Part shown: piece by piece, positions 28,096 to 50,074 of the stretch
Position numbering within the stretch: position 1 is the first letter of the stretch
How the letters are laid out: every line of letters starts with the position of its first letter
Virus record (IMG/VR): IMGVR_UViG_3300037320_000070
Span: 1 to 55,519 of that record
Direction: 5' to 3' (one strand)
Source of the DNA: a virus
Lineage: Duplodnaviria; Caudoviricetes
Length of the DNA stretch: 55,519 nt
The notes under the pieces: generated by a model
What the model was told of the DNA's origin: nothing
Seen by the model: the letters and a program-made list of their open reading frames with translations, nothing else
Databases searched by the model: none
Made by a program: the position numbers and the translations under genes

Positions 28096-31000
28096 TTATA
28101 TTTTTGAATCGTTAACTTTTGGTATTATCATCCAACTTGCTGTTATTGCCTTACCTACATCAGCCGAATTAAATGATAGTTCCCCAGTTCCGCGACATAT
28201 GTATACAGTTCCCGCCGTTGGTAAACTTACACCATCGGACGGCAATATATTAGCCTTTACACCATCAAGTAATATTTCACCACTTGCACTAAAATATTCA
28301 TATGATAGCTTTGCGAAGTTGGGATCAAATGCCCCAGTATCCGTACCATCACCAACTTTAACAACGTGTCTAATATCGTCAAATGTTACCGTTGCGTTCC
28401 AAATATTTAAACTGTAATAATCAGTATTAGATTTTATAGTACCCTTCAACACACCAGAAATATTAGTTCCAAATGTATGTATTAATCCACCATTTCTGTT
28501 TAATATTAGCGTATCGCCTACCCTAGAAAATTGATATTCATCGTTGATTGGATCGAAGTCTGTAACGTCAACATCTACTTCCGAACCAATAGTTAATATT
28601 TTTATTCTAGCTCTATCTGGATAATCATTATCATACTGTATTAGCACCCCAAAATCTGCTTCATTAGATTCGGTAGTACTTATCGATGATTTTGTAATAA
28701 GCCCAAAGTAAGTTTTATATATATTTGATAAATTTGTCGGCATATTAAAGGGATAATAACTACAACTCATACCAAAATCAATTACAAAGTCACCATCTAA
28801 ATCAGCACCAATAACCATTCCATCTGAAGGTAATCCTACACTACTTTCATTATTAGTGTCCCCAGAATATGTACCAATATAGTCAATTTCAGCTACAAGT
28901 TTGCAATTCTCACCGTTGTCAATCTGCAAATGACTTTCAAACGCATATGGCATAGTAGTTACACCGATTGGGTTAGGTACGGTTGTTGGAAAAGTTCCAG
29001 TTCCCTTAGCCCCAGCGCCGAACATTACTGTCAATTCAGTAGAAAATTCAGTAGTATCGTCTTTAACAATACCATCATATACATAAGTATCAAATATATC
29101 ATCCGCTACAAATGCTGTAGAACTACCTACACTACCATCCAAATCAAAAAACTGAATAGATAACCCATCTATTGTTTCTTCTTTATCTGAATGTGTAGAC
29201 TTAGTACCCGCATGATCCCGCACCCAAGCTGAACCATTCCATCCATAATATGCCCAAGCATCATCAGCACCAGATATGTAAGCATCATTGTTACCTAATC
29301 CAAGTGGATCACCAACACTGTGATCAAATATATACATTCCACTGACCGTACCATATTCGCCATAAATAAAAGTGTTATCGTCAACTGGTCTATCAGATCT
29401 AATTATAGTTAATCCACCGCCTATTGATATAAAGTTACATGTCGTATATGAGGTTTCATCTTGGGTAAATATCTTAACATTATCTGGCGTTCCTGTTATG
29501 TAACTCTCAATATTATTTAAAGCCCTACCTTTTCTACCATTTTCGGTAAATAAATTTGGTGAACTATATCTAGCAGTTATATAATATAGATATTGTTCCA
29601 GTTCGGCATCGTATGTGAAACATGTTGGGCTACTACTATTCGTTAAAGAACTTCTATTAGTATTAGTGGTAGTTCCCCAAGTAGCCACATCATCTAGTAT
29701 AACCCAGCTATCTGTTCCGAGTATTGCATGAACCGCATTATTTCCATGCAATGGGTATAAAAAAAACCGCGCCCCTGAATTGTCCAATTGACTAGTTGAT
29801 TCATCTGAAGCCGAACTACTTCCACCTACAGACCACCAATGAGCTACAGGATATATTACAGTTGATACAGCCGATGAATACGTTCCATCATCAGTATATA
29901 CTTTGGTACTGGATAAAAAACACATGCGCTCGTCTTCGTGAACACTGTCAACGTGCATTCCAACTAATTTATTATATCCATCTGCATCATCAATACCAGT
30001 TAATACGAATTTTGGTGTAGTTGATGCGTTTAGTACTGTCCAATTCGAACCTTGATCCGTTGAATATGCTAATTCAGTGCTAAATAACGCCCACCATTTA
30101 GTTCCATGTAATCCAGTATGGCTAGGTGAGTTAGCATCGAATGCTTGACATTTCGCATTATCTACTAATCCAGTTGGTTGAATATGGGTAATTGTAGCCG
30201 AACTAGCGGCATCGCCAATATTACGCTCTATTTTCCATAATCCTGTATCACCACAAGCAACAACTATAGTACCATCCAAAAACCCCTCTACACATTTTAT
30301 TTCTGTAACTGGTAGCGATGGGGTTGTGCCAGCACTCCATTCCAAGTAATCATCTTCATCTATCGCATGAATACTTCTAACAAATACCGCATTTCTACCA
30401 GATGGTTTACTATTTACTGATATATATTCTGGAAGTGAATATTGACCTATATACCAACCAATATTAGTGAAATCACTTCTATCTGCTATAAGACCGGTAT
30501 CTTTCGGTTGTGTATTATCATTATTTTTAGTATAATCACTATCACTATCCGTAACAAAGTTCATTCTAGCTGTGGTCCTAGAAATCCATGAATTTTGATC
30601 TCTAAATCCGGTTATAAGCTTTTTTGATATTTTGTATGTACTAGTACCAATAGCCCCAGAGTCTACTATGTGAGTTCTAAATAATTCAGCAAATCCATTT
30701 TTAATTACGTAACTGGTATTACCACTTGATAAATCGTCAGACAATACGGCGCGCCCTAATCCATTCCCAATGAGATCGGTATCTAAGAATGGCGTTGGCA
30801 CTTTGGCAAACTGATCACTACCTAAAGCTTTATGAAACGTGCTATTTATAGTAGTATCCAGAGGTCTTCGAACTTTAGTACTATATAAATTAATCATATT
30901 CCCACGGTAAGTGTTGGTATTGGGCATTGAACCGACCATAGTAAGGTAGGTATTATTGTTATATGGTTGAGCCGTATTAAATAATCTACCAATATGATCG

Positions 31001-31785
31001 GAATTTGTGGCTGAAAAAATATGATTCGAATATCCCTCACTATAATTACGCTTATCGCCGTCTGGTAAAGTAACATCACCACTACTAAAATTAACGGCGG
31101 CATCACTATTGACCGTTATATCAAAACTTGAAAATAATATTGCATTCGGTTCTGAGTACGGATTAGCATAATCACTAGCCATAGCTTGTCTCTTGCTTAT
31201 AAAAGCACTAGCCGTTGGATCAGATATACTAGTGTATAAATCTGAAGAATCGTCATACCAATTATATCTATATTTTATGATTAATAATTCATTAGTTTCT
31301 TGAACACATGGTACATTTAGAGTTACCGAACTTATCGGGTTATTTCTACTGCGTAGGTAGAAGCATCCAATGGTATATATAGTTCTAGCCTGTGAAGTTG
31401 GTGGATTCCATCTTGCTTCAGTGGTTATAGTGTTAGGAGAACCTAATACAAACGTTGGTTCTTCTTTACCAGATGTTTGCCCACCCAAAATAGGCGAGTT
31501 AGTATCTTCACTGCTAGAAGTGTAATCTATTGCATTATTCTTCCATGATTTTGAATATACTTTTATACTACATATAAACAAACGCTGATTATTTGTAAAT
31601 GTCGGATAACCATCATCATTAGTGTTAGTAGCGGCACATACGCCAACAGATCCACCGTTAGCGCCCAACCTAGCGGCAATATTTACATTATTTTTCTCAA
31701 TTCTAGTTTCTATTAATTCTATAGGTATCCATTCACCATCAACTAGTTCTGCTTTGTACTTTTCTATTTCATAATAACCTTGCAT
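28096..31785 (-). CDS. Large putative tail/receptor-binding structural protein
   Basis: 1229 aa, S/T/D/N/G-rich, YSTDQGSNW Asp-box; late operon. Confidence 0.7.
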   Translation of the reverse strand: MQGYYEIEKYKAELVDGEWIPIELIETRIEKNNVNIAARLGANGGSVGVCAATNTNDDGYPTFTNNQRLFICSIKVYSKSWKNNAIDYTSSSEDTNSPILGGQTSGKEEPTFVLGSPNTITTEARWNPPTSQARTIYTIGCFYLRSRNNPISSVTLNVPCVQETNELLIIKYRYNWYDDSSDLYTSISDPTASAFISKRQAMASDYANPYSEPNAILFSSFDITVNSDAAVNFSSGDVTLPDGDKRNYSEGYSNHIFSATNSDHIGRLFNTAQPYNNNTYLTMVGSMPNTNTYRGNMINLYSTKVRRPLDTTINSTFHKALGSDQFAKVPTPFLDTDLIGNGLGRAVLSDDLSSGNTSYVIKNGFAELFRTHIVDSGAIGTSTYKISKKLITGFRDQNSWISRTTARMNFVTDSDSDYTKNNDNTQPKDTGLIADRSDFTNIGWYIGQYSLPEYISVNSKPSGRNAVFVRSIHAIDEDDYLEWSAGTTPSLPVTEIKCVEGFLDGTIVVACGDTGLWKIERNIGDAASSATITHIQPTGLVDNAKCQAFDANSPSHTGLHGTKWWALFSTELAYSTDQGSNWTVLNASTTPKFVLTGIDDADGYNKLVGMHVDSVHEDERMCFLSSTKVYTDDGTYSSAVSTVIYPVAHWWSVGGSSSASDESTSQLDNSGARFFLYPLHGNNAVHAILGTDSWVILDDVATWGTTTNTNRSSLTNSSSPTCFTYDAELEQYLYYITARYSSPNLFTENGRKGRALNNIESYITGTPDNVKIFTQDETSYTTCNFISIGGGLTIIRSDRPVDDNTFIYGEYGTVSGMYIFDHSVGDPLGLGNNDAYISGADDAWAYYGWNGSAWVRDHAGTKSTHSDKEETIDGLSIQFFDLDGSVGSSTAFVADDIFDTYVYDGIVKDDTTEFSTELTVMFGAGAKGTGTFPTTVPNPIGVTTMPYAFESHLQIDNGENCKLVAEIDYIGTYSGDTNNESSVGLPSDGMVIGADLDGDFVIDFGMSCSYYPFNMPTNLSNIYKTYFGLITKSSISTTESNEADFGVLIQYDNDYPDRARIKILTIGSEVDVDVTDFDPINDEYQFSRVGDTLILNRNGGLIHTFGTNISGVLKGTIKSNTDYYSLNIWNATVTFDDIRHVVKVGDGTDTGAFDPNFAKLSYEYFSASGEILLDGVKANILPSDGVSLPTAGTVYICRGTGELSFNSADVGKAITASWMIIPKVNDSKI

Positions 31786-36570: not shown

Positions 36571-36600
36571 AAGTGAGGGTAAATATGCCCTCACTTTTTT
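36571..36600 (+). terminator. Intrinsic terminator after gene 32
   Basis: AAGTGAGGGTA-AATA-TGCCCTCACTT followed by a T run. Confidence 0.8.
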
Positions 36601-36617
36601 ATCTCAAAAGGAAAAAC

Positions 36618-39101
36618 ATGTATACAATATACGGAAAAGATAGTTGCCCATACTGTCTTAAAGCTAAAGAATTCCTAAAAAACCGCAAAGAATTATTCAC
36701 CTATGTAGATTTAGATGATCCAGATGATCATTATTCAAATCAATTTCTAATATCAGAAGGTGCTACAACAATACCTCAAATTTATTACGATGATTGGTGT
36801 ATTGGTGGTTATAGTGATTTATTTGCATTGCCAAACAGTCACTTTACTTCGAATTTACCACCAGTTGAGGTTGTTGAATTGGTCAAGGGTATTAAATACG
36901 TATTAAAACGTGATGGTACAACTGAACCATTCCAAGCTAAAAAAATTAATGATATGGTCGAATGGGCGGTTAAAGCCGATAGCTCAGTCCAATGGTCTGA
37001 AGTTGTGATGCTCGCCATGGATAAATTGAGTGGCGATACCTATAAAGTTTCTGATATCCAAAAAGCACTAATTGATGCTTGCCTAGATAAAGAAACCGAA
37101 TCGCATAATAAAGTTGCGGGTAGGTTATTACTTGGTTCAATCCGAAAAACATCTAAAGCAGATCCAGACTTTATTAAATTTTATAAATTTATGGTCGAAG
37201 GTAAGTATTGGCGAAAAATGAAATGGGATCAACTGCAATTACAAGCGTTTGCTTCTCATATCGATCATGATAAGGATTTGGGCTATGGATATCCATCATT
37301 TAGGCAGTTTAGAGATAAGTACAGCATAAAAGATCACGATGGTAACTTATTAGAATTACCCCAATATATGTATATGGGTATTGCTATGGCTAGATTTGAA
37401 AAATCTGGAAATTGGTTAGATGTAATTCATTACTATAAATTAGTTTCAGATCACAAGATCAATTTACCGTCACCACAATTATCAACCACTAGAACCCCAT
37501 CAAATGCGGGTGTATCTTGTGTGTTAATTACCGGCGGCGATAGCCTACATGGAATCGAAGCGGCTAAACATATTGCATTTTTAAGTACAGCGGCATCGGC
37601 GGGAATTGGTATTGAAATGGACGTAAGATCACCCGGTGATTCAGTCCGAAATGGTTACGCAAAGGCTGGCGGCAAAATGCCACATTATCGCACGATATCA
37701 GCTACCGTAAAGGAAGTTAAGCAAAGTAATCGCGGCGGTAGCGCAACAACCAGCTTTACTTGCCTAGATCCTGAAGTAATGGACTTACTAAAGTTAAAGT
37801 TGCCCAGAACCTCAGAAGAACGTAAAATTGATAAATTGGATTATTCATTAATAGTCAATCAATCGTTTTTACGCCGCGCCGCAAAACGTCAGGATTGGGC
37901 ATTAGTTAGTAGAGCCGATTTTCCAGAACTATATTCAGCGTTTTATAAAGAAGATTGTATCGAATTTGACAAAATCATGGATACAATTCTAGCTATGCAA
38001 TGTCGGAAACAAGTTATAGGTGCGTATGATGTATTAGATAGATTCCTAGAATCAAGACAAGAGATTGGTCGATACTATGAAACTAATATTACTCACGCAA
38101 ATAAGCACACACCATTTGACACTAATATAACGCCTATCAGAATTAGTAACTTATGTCAAGAAATTCTTTTGCCAACAAAAGCGTATAACCATATAACTGA
38201 ATTGTATAAGAACCATTATGACTATAATGATGGAATGACGGCACTATGTTTTATATCTGCAATCGATGTATATAAAATTAAATCAGATGAAGAATATGAA
38301 CAAGCATGTTATTATGCCCTTAAATCTTTAGATGATTTGATTGATGATATGGTTTATCCTACACCACAAATTGAATTTGTTGCTAAGGCGTGGCGATCGG
38401 TAGGCGTTGGAATGACCAATGTTGCACAATTAATCGCAAGTGCGGGTAAGTCGTATAAAGACCATGCTTATATACATTGGTTAGCAGAGCGTCATTATTA
38501 CTTCTTACTTAAAGCTAGTATTCAGTTAGCTAAAGAGCGCGGTAAGTTTGATTGGTACGATTATACTAGATGGGGTAATGGTTGGACTCCACTAGAAACG
38601 TATAATAAAAATGTTGATTCGCTATATTCTGAATGCAAATTCGATTGGGAGAATCTTAAATCTGAAGTTGCGCAACATGGTGTTAGATTTAGCGTATTGT
38701 GTGCGCATATGCCCTGTGAGAGTAGTTCGGTAATGACTAATGGTACTAATAGTCTGTACCCAATTCGTAACGATTTGGTATATAAAGATTCTAAGGGTGG
38801 CGATATTCAATTTTTTGCACCTAATTATACTAAATATGATTACGAGGAAGTTTGGGATTTATCATTTAAACATATTGCCGACTTCTATGCGATATGTCAA
38901 AAGTGGTGCGACCAAGCGATATCAGCTGATACATTTGTGGACTTTAGTAAATATCCTAACAAGCAAGTGCCGAAGTCAGAACGAACCAAAAACTACCTTT
39001 ACTGGAACAAAATGGGCATCAAAACCATGTATTACCAAAACCCGAAAACTGGGCGCGGTGAAAAAGGTTCAGAACCCGATTGTGCGGAATGTAGTTTTTA
39101 A
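36618..39101 (+). CDS. nrdA: Class Ia ribonucleotide reductase alpha subunit with N-terminal glutaredoxin fusion
   Basis: IYGKDSCPYC..TIPQIY..IGGYSDL (Grx), VLKRDG (ATP-cone), LPSPQL, SCVL, SNLCQEI, PCESSS, KTMYY, C-terminal CAEC. Confidence 0.95.
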   Translation: MYTIYGKDSCPYCLKAKEFLKNRKELFTYVDLDDPDDHYSNQFLISEGATTIPQIYYDDWCIGGYSDLFALPNSHFTSNLPPVEVVELVKGIKYVLKRDGTTEPFQAKKINDMVEWAVKADSSVQWSEVVMLAMDKLSGDTYKVSDIQKALIDACLDKETESHNKVAGRLLLGSIRKTSKADPDFIKFYKFMVEGKYWRKMKWDQLQLQAFASHIDHDKDLGYGYPSFRQFRDKYSIKDHDGNLLELPQYMYMGIAMARFEKSGNWLDVIHYYKLVSDHKINLPSPQLSTTRTPSNAGVSCVLITGGDSLHGIEAAKHIAFLSTAASAGIGIEMDVRSPGDSVRNGYAKAGGKMPHYRTISATVKEVKQSNRGGSATTSFTCLDPEVMDLLKLKLPRTSEERKIDKLDYSLIVNQSFLRRAAKRQDWALVSRADFPELYSAFYKEDCIEFDKIMDTILAMQCRKQVIGAYDVLDRFLESRQEIGRYYETNITHANKHTPFDTNITPIRISNLCQEILLPTKAYNHITELYKNHYDYNDGMTALCFISAIDVYKIKSDEEYEQACYYALKSLDDLIDDMVYPTPQIEFVAKAWRSVGVGMTNVAQLIASAGKSYKDHAYIHWLAERHYYFLLKASIQLAKERGKFDWYDYTRWGNGWTPLETYNKNVDSLYSECKFDWENLKSEVAQHGVRFSVLCAHMPCESSSVMTNGTNSLYPIRNDLVYKDSKGGDIQFFAPNYTKYDYEEVWDLSFKHIADFYAICQKWCDQAISADTFVDFSKYPNKQVPKSERTKNYLYWNKMGIKTMYYQNPKTGRGEKGSEPDCAECSF

Positions 39102-46257: not shown

Positions 46258-46502
46258 TGCAACCGTCATGCAAATTTATAGTTGGCGAAACTGTGGTTAC
46301 TAATTTTCACAAATCAGAATCAAATCTAGTTAGAGTAGTAACCGACATATCAAAATACAAATATTCTCAAACTGGATGGTGCGTTCATAGTTATTGCGCG
46401 CTTAGTAAATCTAAAAACTTATCCATCGACTCAGCTTGGTATACCTCAATAATAGAATATAATTCAGATATTTCCAATTTTAACATTGACAAATTTATGT
46501 AA
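46242..46502 (+). CDS. Hypothetical protein
   Basis: ORF track. Confidence 0.55.
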   Translation: MQNTVMQPSCKFIVGETVVTNFHKSESNLVRVVTDISKYKYSQTGWCVHSYCALSKSKNLSIDSAWYTSIIEYNSDISNFNIDKFM

Positions 46503-47075
46503 ATATTTACGATATGATTCTCTTCGATTATCCCCATTAGATACTTCATCTTCTGTAAATCCTACACCCAGTAAGAACTTTTTTTGGGCGGTTGCGGCTT
46601 TTACTTTCTTCATCCAATCAATTACCGCTTTTTCAAATTTAGCTTGATCAAATGTCATATCATATCTTTCTGCATATGTTTTAATTTCGTGGCATGGCTT
46701 ACAGAATATTTGCAAATCATCTAACGTTACATCTAAAATACTACGTGTAAATTGTTCAGCATCGGCAAGACTCAGCAATTGATGTTCACCCACTTTGTGA
46801 TCGGTTTCAACATCGGTCATTTTAAACATGCCATTGCAATTCTCACACTCACACAGCCACTTTGTACGAGTATCGGGGTTCATATCAGATATACGTGCCA
46901 TTTCTAGCTTGAGTAGGCGTACAGGTGACATCATCCAAGTTTTTCGGACATTACTACGGAGTATTGAACACATTTGTTTTTCTGTTAACCTACCATTGCC
47001 ACCGGAAATCTTTTTTTCTAATGATGCCTTGAAATCTTTCTTCTTTTGTAGGTCAATCGCGCTTGGTAAAGCCAT
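46464..47075 (-). CDS. HNH-type endonuclease
   Basis: CECENC..., VETDH, LQIFCKPCHEIKT; the only minus-strand gene in this block. Confidence 0.75.
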   Translation of the reverse strand: MALPSAIDLQKKKDFKASLEKKISGGNGRLTEKQMCSILRSNVRKTWMMSPVRLLKLEMARISDMNPDTRTKWLCECENCNGMFKMTDVETDHKVGEHQLLSLADAEQFTRSILDVTLDDLQIFCKPCHEIKTYAERYDMTFDQAKFEKAVIDWMKKVKAATAQKKFLLGVGFTEDEVSNGDNRRESYRKYLHKFVNVKIGNI

Positions 47076-47160
47076 TTTAAGCATATCCTAATTTTTCTAT
47101 TGTACAAATATTTATATGTGCTACAATTCGCATTAATTCGAAATATTAGAGAGATATATT

Positions 47161-47822: not shown

Positions 47823-48116
47823 ATGTCAGCAAAAGGTTTAAGAAAACGTATTAACTCTGCACCGTTTGGCTTTAGGTATGTTCATTTAGTTAAAGATTGC
47901 GAGAATCCAGATCGACAATATTATTTAGATGTTATCACCGAATTAAATAAATCGCATTGTGGTAAATTGTTTGGTAACATTGCAACTAAGTATTTAGAAA
48001 AAATGGACGAGTTGGAAGCAAGGAACATTTATGAGAAGACGATTAAAAAAGCAAAGAATTCAGAGAAGAAGACTAGCTTGGCAGATCGACTTAAAGGAAA
48101 GTTTTATAAAAAATAA
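47823..48116 (+). CDS. Basic hypothetical late protein
   Basis: GAGGA RBS; late promoter. Confidence 0.7.
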   Translation: MSAKGLRKRINSAPFGFRYVHLVKDCENPDRQYYLDVITELNKSHCGKLFGNIATKYLEKMDELEARNIYEKTIKKAKNSEKKTSLADRLKGKFYKK

Positions 48117-48126
48117 GGTGATTTGA

Positions 48127-49776
48127 ATGGAACAGCAATATATAGATTTATGTAAACGTATTATTAATGATGGAAAGTGGGTAATGAATGAGCGAACTGG
48201 AAAGCGGTGCTTGACAGTTATCAATGCAGACTTCGAATATGACTGTAGTGAGGGCAAAATGCCCATCTTAACCACTAAAAAGGCATATTGGAAGTCTGCT
48301 ATTGCTGAAATGATTGGATACCTCAGAGGGTATACTAGTGCCGCCGATTTTCGCGCACTTGGTTGTAATACTTGGAATGCGAATGCGAATGAAAACGAAG
48401 CTTGGCTAAAAAATCCGCATCGTAAAGGTGTTGATGATATGGGTCGCGCCTATAGATTTAGGGAGTCTGGATACTATAGCAATTCTATAACTATAAAAAA
48501 AGAACCACCAAAAGATATACAAACGCCAAAAGTACAAGAGTTAATAGATCCAGATTATACGTCCAATAAACACAATTTGATAGGAAATCTACACAATTCC
48601 AATAGTTATGGACGTTTTGTTGTTATAAATGAACATACTAAAAATGGTGAATCACTTGAGCTATTTTTTGATATACAATTTTTAAAAACTGGATACATTA
48701 AAAAATCTGTACGTAAAGCTGAAATTTTAAAAGGTGAGATTAGAGATATATATTTTCCGATAGTTTGTGGTATAGGTTGCTATGGAGATCTAAATGCATT
48801 TGATACTTACCTTATCGATATATTAAAACCAGTATGGCGAAATATGATTGGTAGATGTTACGAAGAGTCTAACAATAGAACTGTGTGGTATAAGGATGAA
48901 GGTGTTTTTGTAGATAGCCGATGGTTAGTATTTGAAAACTTCGTTAATGACTTTACCAAACTACCAAGATGGGAATTAAAGAAAGTGTTTCCAGAAGAAT
49001 ATTCATTAGATAAAGATTGGTCGAACTCTAATTATTATTCAATAGATACATGCAGATGGGCTACTAAAAAGGAACAATCTGTAAATTCTCGAAGTACAAA
49101 TACATTTATTGCTAAAAATTTAGAAACTGGTGAAACTGTACTAGCTAAAGGCGCGGCAGAATTTGGAAAAAAATATAATTTACCTAAAAATTTCGCCGCA
49201 AATATTATAGGTAAATATGTTTATGGTGATACATTTGTATATCATAATTGGGAAATTACAAAAAAATGCCCAAGTGATATATTATATACAGAGGTAGACC
49301 AGTTTAAAGAAATATACGCAAAGATTAAATTAGGTATAGACGACCGTAGATTAATAATGACAGCATATCAACCACATAGCAGACAACAAGAATGCTTACC
49401 CGCGTGTATGCACACTCATACCTTTTCTATATTAGATGGTACTTTATACCTAACCAGCTATCAGCGTTCTATTGATGTGCCATTAGGATTAGGATTTAAC
49501 CAAATTCAGTGTTTCTTTTTACTATCAATTATGGCACAAATTACTAATCTAAAAGCGGGTACAGTGTATCACAAATTAGTCAATTGTCATATTTACGAGG
49601 ATCAACTGGATCTGCTCAAAGAACAGATTGAACGTAAACCATTTAAACAACCGACATTCAAAACGAACGCAAACATTAAAACATTATGGGATTTAGAAAA
49701 TTGGGTCACATTAGATGATTTTTCTTTAGAAGGGTATCAACATCATTCAGCCATTAAATTTCCATTCAGCGTATAA
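48127..49776 (+). CDS. td: Thymidylate synthase with in-frame HNH-type endonuclease insertion
   Basis: ThyA N-part (RTGKRCLTVINAD...DDMGRAY) and C-part (DDRR, CLPACMH, QRSIDVPLG..FN, HIYEDQ) separated by ~280 extra aa. Confidence 0.92.
   Translation: MEQQYIDLCKRIINDGKWVMNERTGKRCLTVINADFEYDCSEGKMPILTTKKAYWKSAIAEMIGYLRGYTSAADFRALGCNTWNANANENEAWLKNPHRKGVDDMGRAYRFRESGYYSNSITIKKEPPKDIQTPKVQELIDPDYTSNKHNLIGNLHNSNSYGRFVVINEHTKNGESLELFFDIQFLKTGYIKKSVRKAEILKGEIRDIYFPIVCGIGCYGDLNAFDTYLIDILKPVWRNMIGRCYEESNNRTVWYKDEGVFVDSRWLVFENFVNDFTKLPRWELKKVFPEEYSLDKDWSNSNYYSIDTCRWATKKEQSVNSRSTNTFIAKNLETGETVLAKGAAEFGKKYNLPKNFAANIIGKYVYGDTFVYHNWEITKKCPSDILYTEVDQFKEIYAKIKLGIDDRRLIMTAYQPHSRQQECLPACMHTHTFSILDGTLYLTSYQRSIDVPLGLGFNQIQCFFLLSIMAQITNLKAGTVYHKLVNCHIYEDQLDLLKEQIERKPFKQPTFKTNANIKTLWDLENWVTLDDFSLEGYQHHSAIKFPFSV
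48454..49290 (+). mobile_element. In-frame homing-endonuclease-like (HNH) insertion within td
   Basis: WRNMIGRCY, V.VDSRW..FENF..D, YSLDKD, YS.DTCRWAT..EQ..N motifs typical of phage HNH endonucleases; boundaries approximate. Confidence 0.8.
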
Positions 49777-49788
49777 TTAAAATACCAC

Positions 49789-49841
49789 TTGACACCATAA
49801 GCCTAATTGATTTATAGTAAACATAAGCAATTAGGCTTTTT
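49789..49841 (+). terminator. Hairpin with U-tail nested in a TTGACA promoter
   Basis: AAGCCTAATTG...CAATTAGGCTT then TTT. Confidence 0.55.
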
Positions 49842-49855
49842 ATTGGAGTAATATT

Positions 49856-50074
49856 ATGATTCAGGAATTTGTTAGTACAATGGGTATGCTTGACCAATTC
49901 ATACTTTTTATAGTAATGGCGTATGGAATTTGGATAGGTTTTAGAAACTTTTTTATTACAGTGGTATATACTATTCGCGGTAATGCAAATCAATTGACTT
50001 CGACTACCGCAGTTGAATTTGCTGATTATATATTTTATGTGCTAGTAATATACTTAATTTATAGTTACGTGTAA
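49856..50074 (+). CDS. Small membrane protein
   Basis: GGAG RBS, two hydrophobic segments. Confidence 0.6.
   Translation: MIQEFVSTMGMLDQFILFIVMAYGIWIGFRNFFITVVYTIRGNANQLTSTTAVEFADYIFYVLVIYLIYSYV

Follow-up and report, generated by a model that had tools for sequence, protein, structure and literature searches.

To our knowledge, homing endonuclease genes are thought to survive in essential genes only by way of introns, inteins or gene splitting. The td group I intron of phage T4, with I-TevI, and the endonuclease inteins have their endonuclease lodged in a gene of nucleotide metabolism and are excised from the RNA or from the protein, mobE splits nrdA in Aeromonas phage Aeh1, and LAGLIDADG open reading frames (ORFs) are fused in frame to fungal mitochondrial rps3. 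Here we describe a thymidylate synthase gene (thyA) found in a viral contig of the IMG/VR collection (IMGVR_UViG_3300037320_000070; 55.5 kb, estimated completeness ∼37%), whose whole stretch of 55,519 nucleotides is called the window below. The encoded ThyA is 549 amino acids (aa) long because its two parts are separated by ∼273 extra residues (113–385; placed at 110–388 in the initial annotation, which was made from the letters alone) that resemble phage proteins annotated as HNH endonucleases. Our best reading, which we hold to be probable, is that these residues represent a homing element that dispenses with splicing and persists as a permanent domain inserted into a loop of ThyA.

The locus shares with the td intron and with endonuclease inteins the lodging of an endonuclease-type sequence in a nucleotide-metabolism gene and an expected co-conversion of the flanks, but the machinery by which those elements are removed was not detected here, and the td intron lies at another site of the thymidylate synthase gene. 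As in Aeh1 and in the rps3 fusions, the endonuclease is found inside the host gene with neither intron nor intein; nrdA of Aeh1, however, is cut into two polypeptides whereas both ThyA halves are in one chain here, and the rps3 fusion sits at the end of the gene, with the displaced end duplicated, whereas the present one is an internal domain insertion. Thymidylate synthases of the Lactobacillus casei type carry an insert of ∼50 residues in the same variable loop of their small domain, which tolerates extra residues; that insert is short and without endonuclease ancestry. The full-text literature searched contained no account of an endonuclease-type sequence inserted in frame into ThyA, subscription journals and supplements being outside the scope of that search. 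Endonucleases in introns, inteins and split genes are already known; what is new is an internal insertion that is kept in a mature, conserved enzyme and has the distribution of a mobile element.

The initial annotation described an oversized ThyA with an in-frame insert, a description that agrees with an ORF open over all 549 codons and with its two-part alignment to known thymidylate synthases. At E ≤ 1 the only Pfam family in the ORF is PF00303 (thymidylate synthase), which is split into two stretches, the best at 378–549 (E = 5.4e-67, 226 bits against a cut-off of 24.3), and phmmer against the PDB aligned the Burkholderia enzyme 3v8h with residues 3–111 and 385–549. Ten residues are invariant in 30 of 30 aligned carriers of the insert (R23, Y109, R407, C427, Q446, R447, D450, N458, H488 and Y490), among them those of the thymidylate synthase motifs Q446-R447-S-x-D450 and H488-x-Y490, and we take these residues to be the equivalents of the catalytic residues of E. 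coli ThyA. Identity as a dCMP or dUMP hydroxymethylase was considered and rejected solely because the uracil-reading Asn (N458) and the whole catalytic set of thymidylate synthase are kept.

The structure prediction that had been proposed as a check resulted in a confident model of the entire fusion. Using a 30-sequence family alignment, AlphaFold2 returned a mean predicted local distance difference test score (pLDDT) of 92.1 and a predicted template modelling score (pTM) of 0.89, with no segment below a pLDDT of 50, and the best PDB matches of this model in Foldseek are thymidylate synthases (TMt 0.83–0.87). The modelled insert is joined to ThyA by an entry strand (113–119) and an exit strand (385–391), and the insertion point is a variable small-domain loop that comprises 56–102 residues over the same stretch in insert-less relatives. 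The initial proposal of a tolerated, translated and folded domain insertion is supported by this model, by the lack of a detectable splicing element (discussed below) and by the invariant thymidylate synthase residues. We consider it well supported, indeed very probable, that the insert is transcribed, translated and retained, giving a fusion of ∼63 kDa. Judging from the conserved residues, the product is probably a working thymidylate synthase that carries a whole endonuclease-type protein.

The insert matches PHROG 2081, annotated 'HNH endonuclease' (residues 146–363 against profile positions 22–238 of 433, E = 3.6e-37), and, more weakly, four further PHROGs annotated as HNH or restriction endonucleases. 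The relation to PHROG 2081 proteins is one of direct homology, with motifs common to 75 free-standing and 106 embedded sequences. In Bastillevirinae, the genes for proteins of this PHROG lie within group I introns of DNA polymerase genes (PMC11878797), which indicates that the family to which the module belongs has a homing-endonuclease lifestyle. Such proteins are separate ORFs that lie in group I intron loops (PMC11878797) or between genes, whereas the module of the window lacks start and stop codons of its own and forms part of the ThyA chain.

Modelled alone from 81 sequences (pLDDT 95.1), the insert consists of a linker and three small domains (Table 1). VIA-align matched domain 1 with 6zn8_F (Z 5.4), the CarD N-domain (4l5g_A, Z 4.6) and the N-domain of Hpy99I, itself a beta-beta-alpha enzyme (3fc3_A, Z 4.2), and domain 3 with residues 119–174 of 1u3e_M (Z 4.5), all of them weak matches. 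The latter structure is I-HmuI, a nicking HNH homing endonuclease of Bacillus phage SPO1, which is also the top row in a Foldseek search with the insert (E = 0.096); no PDB structure was matched at E ≤ 0.001. As modelled, the insert appears to share with I-HmuI a modular layout in which a beta domain at the N-terminus is followed by a beta-beta-alpha unit and by a DNA-binding domain at the C-terminus. The likeness of domain 3 is independently supported by PF22083 (I-HmuI_NUMOD-like), which was matched at the equivalent place in four relatives (P0026, P0145, P0251 and P0261). I-HmuI has the canonical HNH His, however, whereas the insert clade has Lys in its place; Pfam gave no HNH_3 match in the ORF, and the structural likeness is weak. 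As all these structural matches are weak, we treat them as leads and not as proof. Searching the PDB by phmmer with the insert resulted in a single chance-level match (acetyl xylan esterase, E = 0.059), and a PDB profile search with the insert alignment was uninformative because half of its rows carried ThyA columns.

The initial annotation had treated the insert as a singular oddity; instead, the gene of the window is an ordinary member of a so far undescribed family. Homologues covering 99–100% of the 549 aa at 38–67% identity account for 24 of the 120 that were listed. With the insert alone as query, a word-based search yielded a single homologous protein, and an exhaustive HMMER search was used in its place, which resulted in 10,986 representatives at E ≤ 1e-3, of which 773 reached E ≤ 1e-10. 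The best 148 relatives of the insert were sorted into embedded and free-standing forms by phmmer with the ThyA halves of the window and then by Pfam. ThyA was found by phmmer on both sides of the insert in 50 proteins, on the C-terminal side only in 20 and on the N-terminal side only in four (74 in total), and Pfam identified three more as ThyA, so that the same ThyA loop is occupied in at least 77 of these 148, and ThyA is the recognised host gene in 77 of 77. The remainder are free-standing proteins of ∼190–340 aa or tandem forms; P0149, P0182, P0184, P0191, P0192, P0209 and P0227 are free-standing proteins in which the N-terminal barrel or the whole module is present in two to three tandem copies. 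Carriers among cultured phages are Bacillus phages 015DV002 (gene 207, 564 aa) and Kioshi (gene 41, 548 aa), Escherichia phage UE-S1 (gp517, 517 aa) and Klebsiella phage KP13-7 (known from its match row), and their genes are annotated just as 'thymidylate synthase'. In Vibrio phage K412 (L002:2396–4290), thyA is intact (283 aa) and directly preceded by the gene for a free-standing homologue of the insert (273 aa). The loop of the K412 ThyA is atypical and unusually short (Y-G-Y-F-G-H-N-F-G-G), and the branch of this protein on the ThyA tree is long; the loop may be a target site that was altered in a genome with the endonuclease next door.

Insert-less Vibrio-type ThyAs have Y-G-V-Q-G-R upstream of the insertion point (59 of 90) and D-D-R-G-E downstream of it (67 of 90), whereas carriers have Y-R-F-R and D-D-R-R-L at these places. 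In a 15-residue sliding window the ThyA of the window is closer overall to its insert-less clade-mates than to carriers with distant backbones (0.59 against 0.47), with the exception of residues ∼106–112 and 386–413, which are nearer to those carriers. An empty-site allele was found in a marine metagenome (run X4) as two contigs. The upstream contig differs from positions 48106–48447 at 36 of 342 nucleotides and the downstream contig from 49405–49604 at 13 of 200, with similarity beginning only at 49405; both continue at their inner ends into insert-less Vibrio-type sequence, and outside codons 108–426 the allele is ∼90–93% identical to the window in DNA. As the two alleles are alike up to 48447 and again from 49405, the insert brings with it ∼5 foreign codons upstream and 41 downstream. 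The G+C content is 0.28–0.34 in the insert and 0.35–0.43 in the first third of thyA. Sliding window, motif counts and X4 contigs thus agree with the observation of the initial annotation that the ThyA residues directly downstream diverge, and with its inference that a distinct flanking tract accompanies the insert. Such a pattern is what would be expected from co-conversion during homing. Runs X1–X3 contain a more distant insert-less thyA that matches 48359–48446 only.

The distribution of the insert is patchy and disagrees with the phylogeny of its host enzyme. On a ThyA-core tree of 189 rows (99 carriers and 90 insert-less sequences, insert and loop columns removed) the presence of the insert changes state seven times, at least four of these changes being forced by well-supported branches; the insert-less P0107, for example, is the sister of the carrier P0014. 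On the insert tree, embedded and free-standing forms interchange 14 times (at least six forced), three rows that were counted there as free having proved embedded by Pfam. P0016 has a ThyA 67–73% identical to those of the group to which the window belongs and an insert only ∼30% identical, and P0013 is the reverse (ThyA 46%, insert 50%). On a 53-row mixture-model maximum-likelihood tree, a single clade for the eight type-II carriers is rejected, as forcing it costs 50 log-likelihood units (approximately unbiased test, p = 0.0365, a marginal value). Taken together, it is likely that the insert moves between thyA lineages by recombination, and the mobile element suspected in the initial annotation has a counterpart in this discordant distribution.

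The insert also appears to be lost. Truncated inserts are found in P0012, P0020, P0023, P0027 and P0028 (411–479 aa), and Q317 is lost in five of these five while it is kept in 24 of 24 full-length inserts of types I and II, which indicates that this residue is constrained only while the module is whole. Three insert-less proteins (P0038, P0041 and P0084) keep carrier-type flanks together with a remnant of the linker and may be footprint alleles left behind by loss of the insert.

In the mechanism that we propose, a module of the PHROG 2081 family, comprising a barrel, a His-less nuclease-like domain and an I-HmuI-like DNA-binding domain, would have been inserted in frame into thyA and would persist as part of the translated fusion. 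During co-infection the embedded module would cut an insert-less thyA, and recombinational repair would then spread the insert, while the carried flanking tracts would also alter the sequence that surrounds the point of insertion, presumably the target. Decay of the element would result in truncated copies and footprints. A more far-reaching version of this model, which we offer as a tentative suggestion, adds to introns and inteins another mode of life for homing endonucleases in essential genes, in which the element persists permanently as an in-frame domain in a permissive surface loop and the host enzyme itself serves as its carrier. Coupled to this suggestion, and equally tentative, are two ideas: the obligate ThyA dimer might pair two nicking-type modules and so form a double-strand cutter of the insert-less thyA alleles of co-infecting phages, and the carrier allele might be made immune by its own flanking tract.

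The apparent beta-beta-alpha unit of domain 2 (strands 293–295 and 310–312 and helix 314–319 by DSSP of the model) contains the motif S-L-D-K-D...N...Y-Y-S-x-x-T-C-R-W...E-Q-x-x-N, starting with S293 to D297, and the key residues of the domain are D295-K296-D297, N302, Y304, C309, W311, E316, Q317 and N320. Y304 lies in the loop that connects the two strands and is kept in 105 of 106 embedded and 74 of 75 free-standing sequences. The helix positions 317 and 320 covary, with Q/N in 56 embedded and six free-standing sequences and otherwise N with a non-N residue, so that an Asn, a putative metal ligand, is kept at one or the other; the window has Q317, with N320 one turn further along the helix. 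Domain 2 looks like a His-Me finger that lacks its His, a resemblance drawn from the model. A precedent for such a site is PacI (3m7k/3ldy), to which the central domain aligns weakly (3m7k_A by VIA-align: Z 4.5, 89 aligned, rmsd (root mean square deviation) 3.5). PacI is described as a His-Me finger without the His, in which a Tyr from the loop between the strands takes over the role of this residue (PMC5714182). By analogy, the near-invariant Y304, or another residue, could stand in for the missing His of the insert, although there is no detectable sequence similarity to PacI and no sign of its zinc sites in the insert. The 'HNH motifs' of the initial annotation accordingly stand as homology to phage proteins annotated HNH, but not as a Pfam HNH match or a catalytic His. 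The invariance of Y304, the Asn retained at 317 or 320 and the loss of Q317 from truncated inserts leave a nuclease activity conceivable, and we would put the chances that such activity of the module itself drives its movement at a little under even.

Several points weigh against a homing element. No nuclease model of Pfam or NCBIfam matches the insert, and the structural matches, with a best Z of 5.4, Z 4.5 for PacI and I-HmuI and a Foldseek E of 0.096, leave nuclease activity unproven. The place of the HNH general-base His is taken by K296 in 103 of 106 embedded and 72 of 75 free-standing sequences, and any His within 292–298 is found in only one of 109 embedded sequences; as Lys replaces His in embedded and free-standing relatives alike, this is a trait of the clade and not decay of the copy in the window. 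A free-standing homologue of the insert within 6 kb was found at none of 67 insert-less IMG/VR thyA loci, and the adjacency seen in K412 is therefore not general. The empty-site allele of X4 consists of two short contigs that are 90–93% identical to the window and not isogenic, and the differences in the flanks could be a structural adaptation to the insert rather than co-conversion. Gains and losses on the ThyA-core tree are unevenly sampled, since the insert-less comparators, all of at least 282 aa, were chosen by similarity to the ThyA of the window. The p value of the approximately unbiased test on the type-II carriers is marginal, and this group was named after the first tree had been seen. 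Finally, the insert of P0005 is nearly as conserved towards the window (62% identity) as its ThyA (69–74%), which fits a domesticated function equally well.

Domestication is the main rival to the homing element, and we consider it unlikely but serious. It would hold that the module is derived from an endonuclease, has lost catalysis and provides ThyA with a new property (for example, binding to DNA or RNA by which dTMP synthesis would be tethered to DNA under replication, or autoregulation, or else a structural role), that it is inherited mostly vertically and that the mosaics arise by ordinary phage recombination. The absence of the catalytic His across the clade, conservation of the insert almost like that of the enzyme, the restriction of recognised hosts to ThyA in the sample of 148, and a pTM that suggests a fixed placement of the insert relative to ThyA are all in line with this. 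Table 2 of PMC11878797 gives DNA-binding InterPro signatures and no HNH signature for the PHROG 2081 members of Bastillevirinae, and inactive His-Me fingers that retain DNA binding exist, the Smad MH1 domain being an example given in PMC5714182. However, a domesticated domain does not readily account for a patchy presence in which insert-less sequences are nested among carriers, for two insert types inside one ThyA clade, or for the truncated and footprint alleles, which indicate that the insert is dispensable and has been lost repeatedly. The foreign flanks with their sharp DNA boundaries and the fact that mobile group I introns harbour members of PHROG 2081 argue in the same direction, as does the conservation of the polar residues D295, K296, D297, Y304 and Asn at 317/320, which a pure scaffold would not need.

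A second rival is that the insert is removed by an unrecognised protein, RNA or translational splicing or bypass mechanism, leaving a mature ThyA of ∼33 kDa. The initial annotation had named this as its alternative, and nothing speaks for it but a general precedent, namely that endonucleases in essential phage genes are usually housed in introns or inteins, as in the T4 td intron and in the inteins found in ThyA relatives. It found no support in any of the checks made. Pfam detected no Hint, intein or LAGLIDADG family in the ORF (E ≤ 1), and no Hint-domain structure is among the 50 rows listed by Foldseek or VIA-align for the insert model. Pfam does recognise true inteins in relatives, as P0183 (909 aa) and P0214 (871 aa) carry the same insert plus an intein further downstream (Intein_splicing and LAGLIDADG_3 in both, Hint_2 in P0214), and thus serve as a positive control; these thyA genes have been invaded twice, by a PHROG 2081-type loop insert and by a LAGLIDADG intein. 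There is no Cys, Ser or Thr nucleophile at either junction (R110 to E113 and Y386 to E389), and the intein termini are absent, as the residue after Y109 is Arg and the sole His-Asn (374–375) is followed by Trp.

No group I or group II intron was found by Rfam in 47900–50000 at E ≤ 10, where the four matches obtained (E 3.8–9.4) are to unrelated families at chance level, in agreement with the initial failure to see a group I core. Related loci were gathered with an alignment query, a single-protein query having returned none, and in the 10 of them scanned (L031, L072, L081 and L001 left out) Rfam found no intron at the gathering score, the sole match being a tRNA. The frame is free of stops inside the match in 13 of 13 long IMG/VR loci, protein conservation reaches both junctions in 30 sequences, and the fusion is modelled with confidence including its entry and exit strands. 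On this sequence evidence the insert is neither an intron nor an intein, and removal by splicing or bypass is very improbable. An assembly chimera, or a thyA killed by insertion, might be suspected in an incomplete metagenomic contig but is the least credible explanation of all, since contigs from a second sequencing run (X2) bridge both junctions at ≥99% identity and exclude an assembly artefact, complete genomes of cultured phages share the architecture, and the catalytic residues are invariant in carriers.

If the reading as a splicing-free homing element is true, plain in-frame domain insertion into a tolerant loop suffices for the survival of a homing endonuclease, and such an insertion can spread widely, into at least 77 clusters at 50% identity that cover phages of Vibrio-like marine hosts, Bacillus, E. 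coli and Klebsiella. It would also provide a natural enzyme–nuclease fusion with a His-less beta-beta-alpha site, and it bears on the origin of inteins and intron-borne endonucleases and on how enzymes gain inserted domains. Because there are carriers among cultured E. coli and Bacillus phages, the question is testable at the bench. For annotation, the point is that such genes are currently labelled merely 'thymidylate synthase'.

Table 1. Parts of the thyA gene in the window, in 5′ to 3′ order (residue numbers refer to the 549-aa product)
Feature	Position	Strand	Description
thyA ORF	48127..49776	+	549 aa and stop; single frame comprising ThyA N-terminal part, insert and ThyA C-terminal part
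ThyA N-terminal part	48127..48447	+	Residues 1–107; native Vibrio-type backbone, sliding identity 0.7–0.8 to insert-less clade-mates
5′ flanking tract	48448..48462	+	Residues 108–112; A-Y-R-F-R, against V-Y-G-V-Q-G-R in insert-less relatives
Insert linker	48463..48558	+	Residues 113–144; extended, conserved K-x-P-P-K-like motif, no regular secondary structure past the first strand; block pLDDT 77–93
Insert domain 1	48559..48738	+	Residues 145–204; small beta-barrel, Tudor/SH3-like
Insert domain 2	48781..49098	+	Residues 219–324; helical region with W-x-x-M-x-x-R-C-Y, followed by the beta-beta-alpha unit
Insert domain 3	49093..49275	+	Residues 323–383; small alpha/beta domain like the C-terminal DNA-binding domain of I-HmuI
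3′ flanking tract	49282..49404	+	Residues 386–426 (..EVDQFKEIYAKIKLGIDDRRLIMTAYQPH..); like distant carriers of the same type, unlike insert-less clade-mates
ThyA C-terminal part	49405..49776	+	Residues 427–549, from the catalytic Cys427 on; native backbone

The window also contains phage genes of nucleotide metabolism, namely nrdA, nrdB and an RNA ligase gene. No match to the thyA region was found among phage records by megablast, and no tRNA gene was found across the 55.5-kb window. The 1229-aa ORF at 28096–31785 (− strand) has no PHROG match at E ≤ 1e-5. The product of nrdA (36573–39101, + strand, 842 aa) has an N-terminal thioredoxin-like domain (PHROG 22, residues 14–82) in front of the reductase. 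A canonical free-standing HNH endonuclease gene (46464–47084, − strand, 206 aa; PHROG 1985, E = 1.6e-52) with Cys pairs and His is found on the strand opposite to thyA, ∼1 kb upstream of it, within a stretch that shows a reversal of the GC skew. The sequencing runs that contain the stretch are labelled as salt lake metagenomes.

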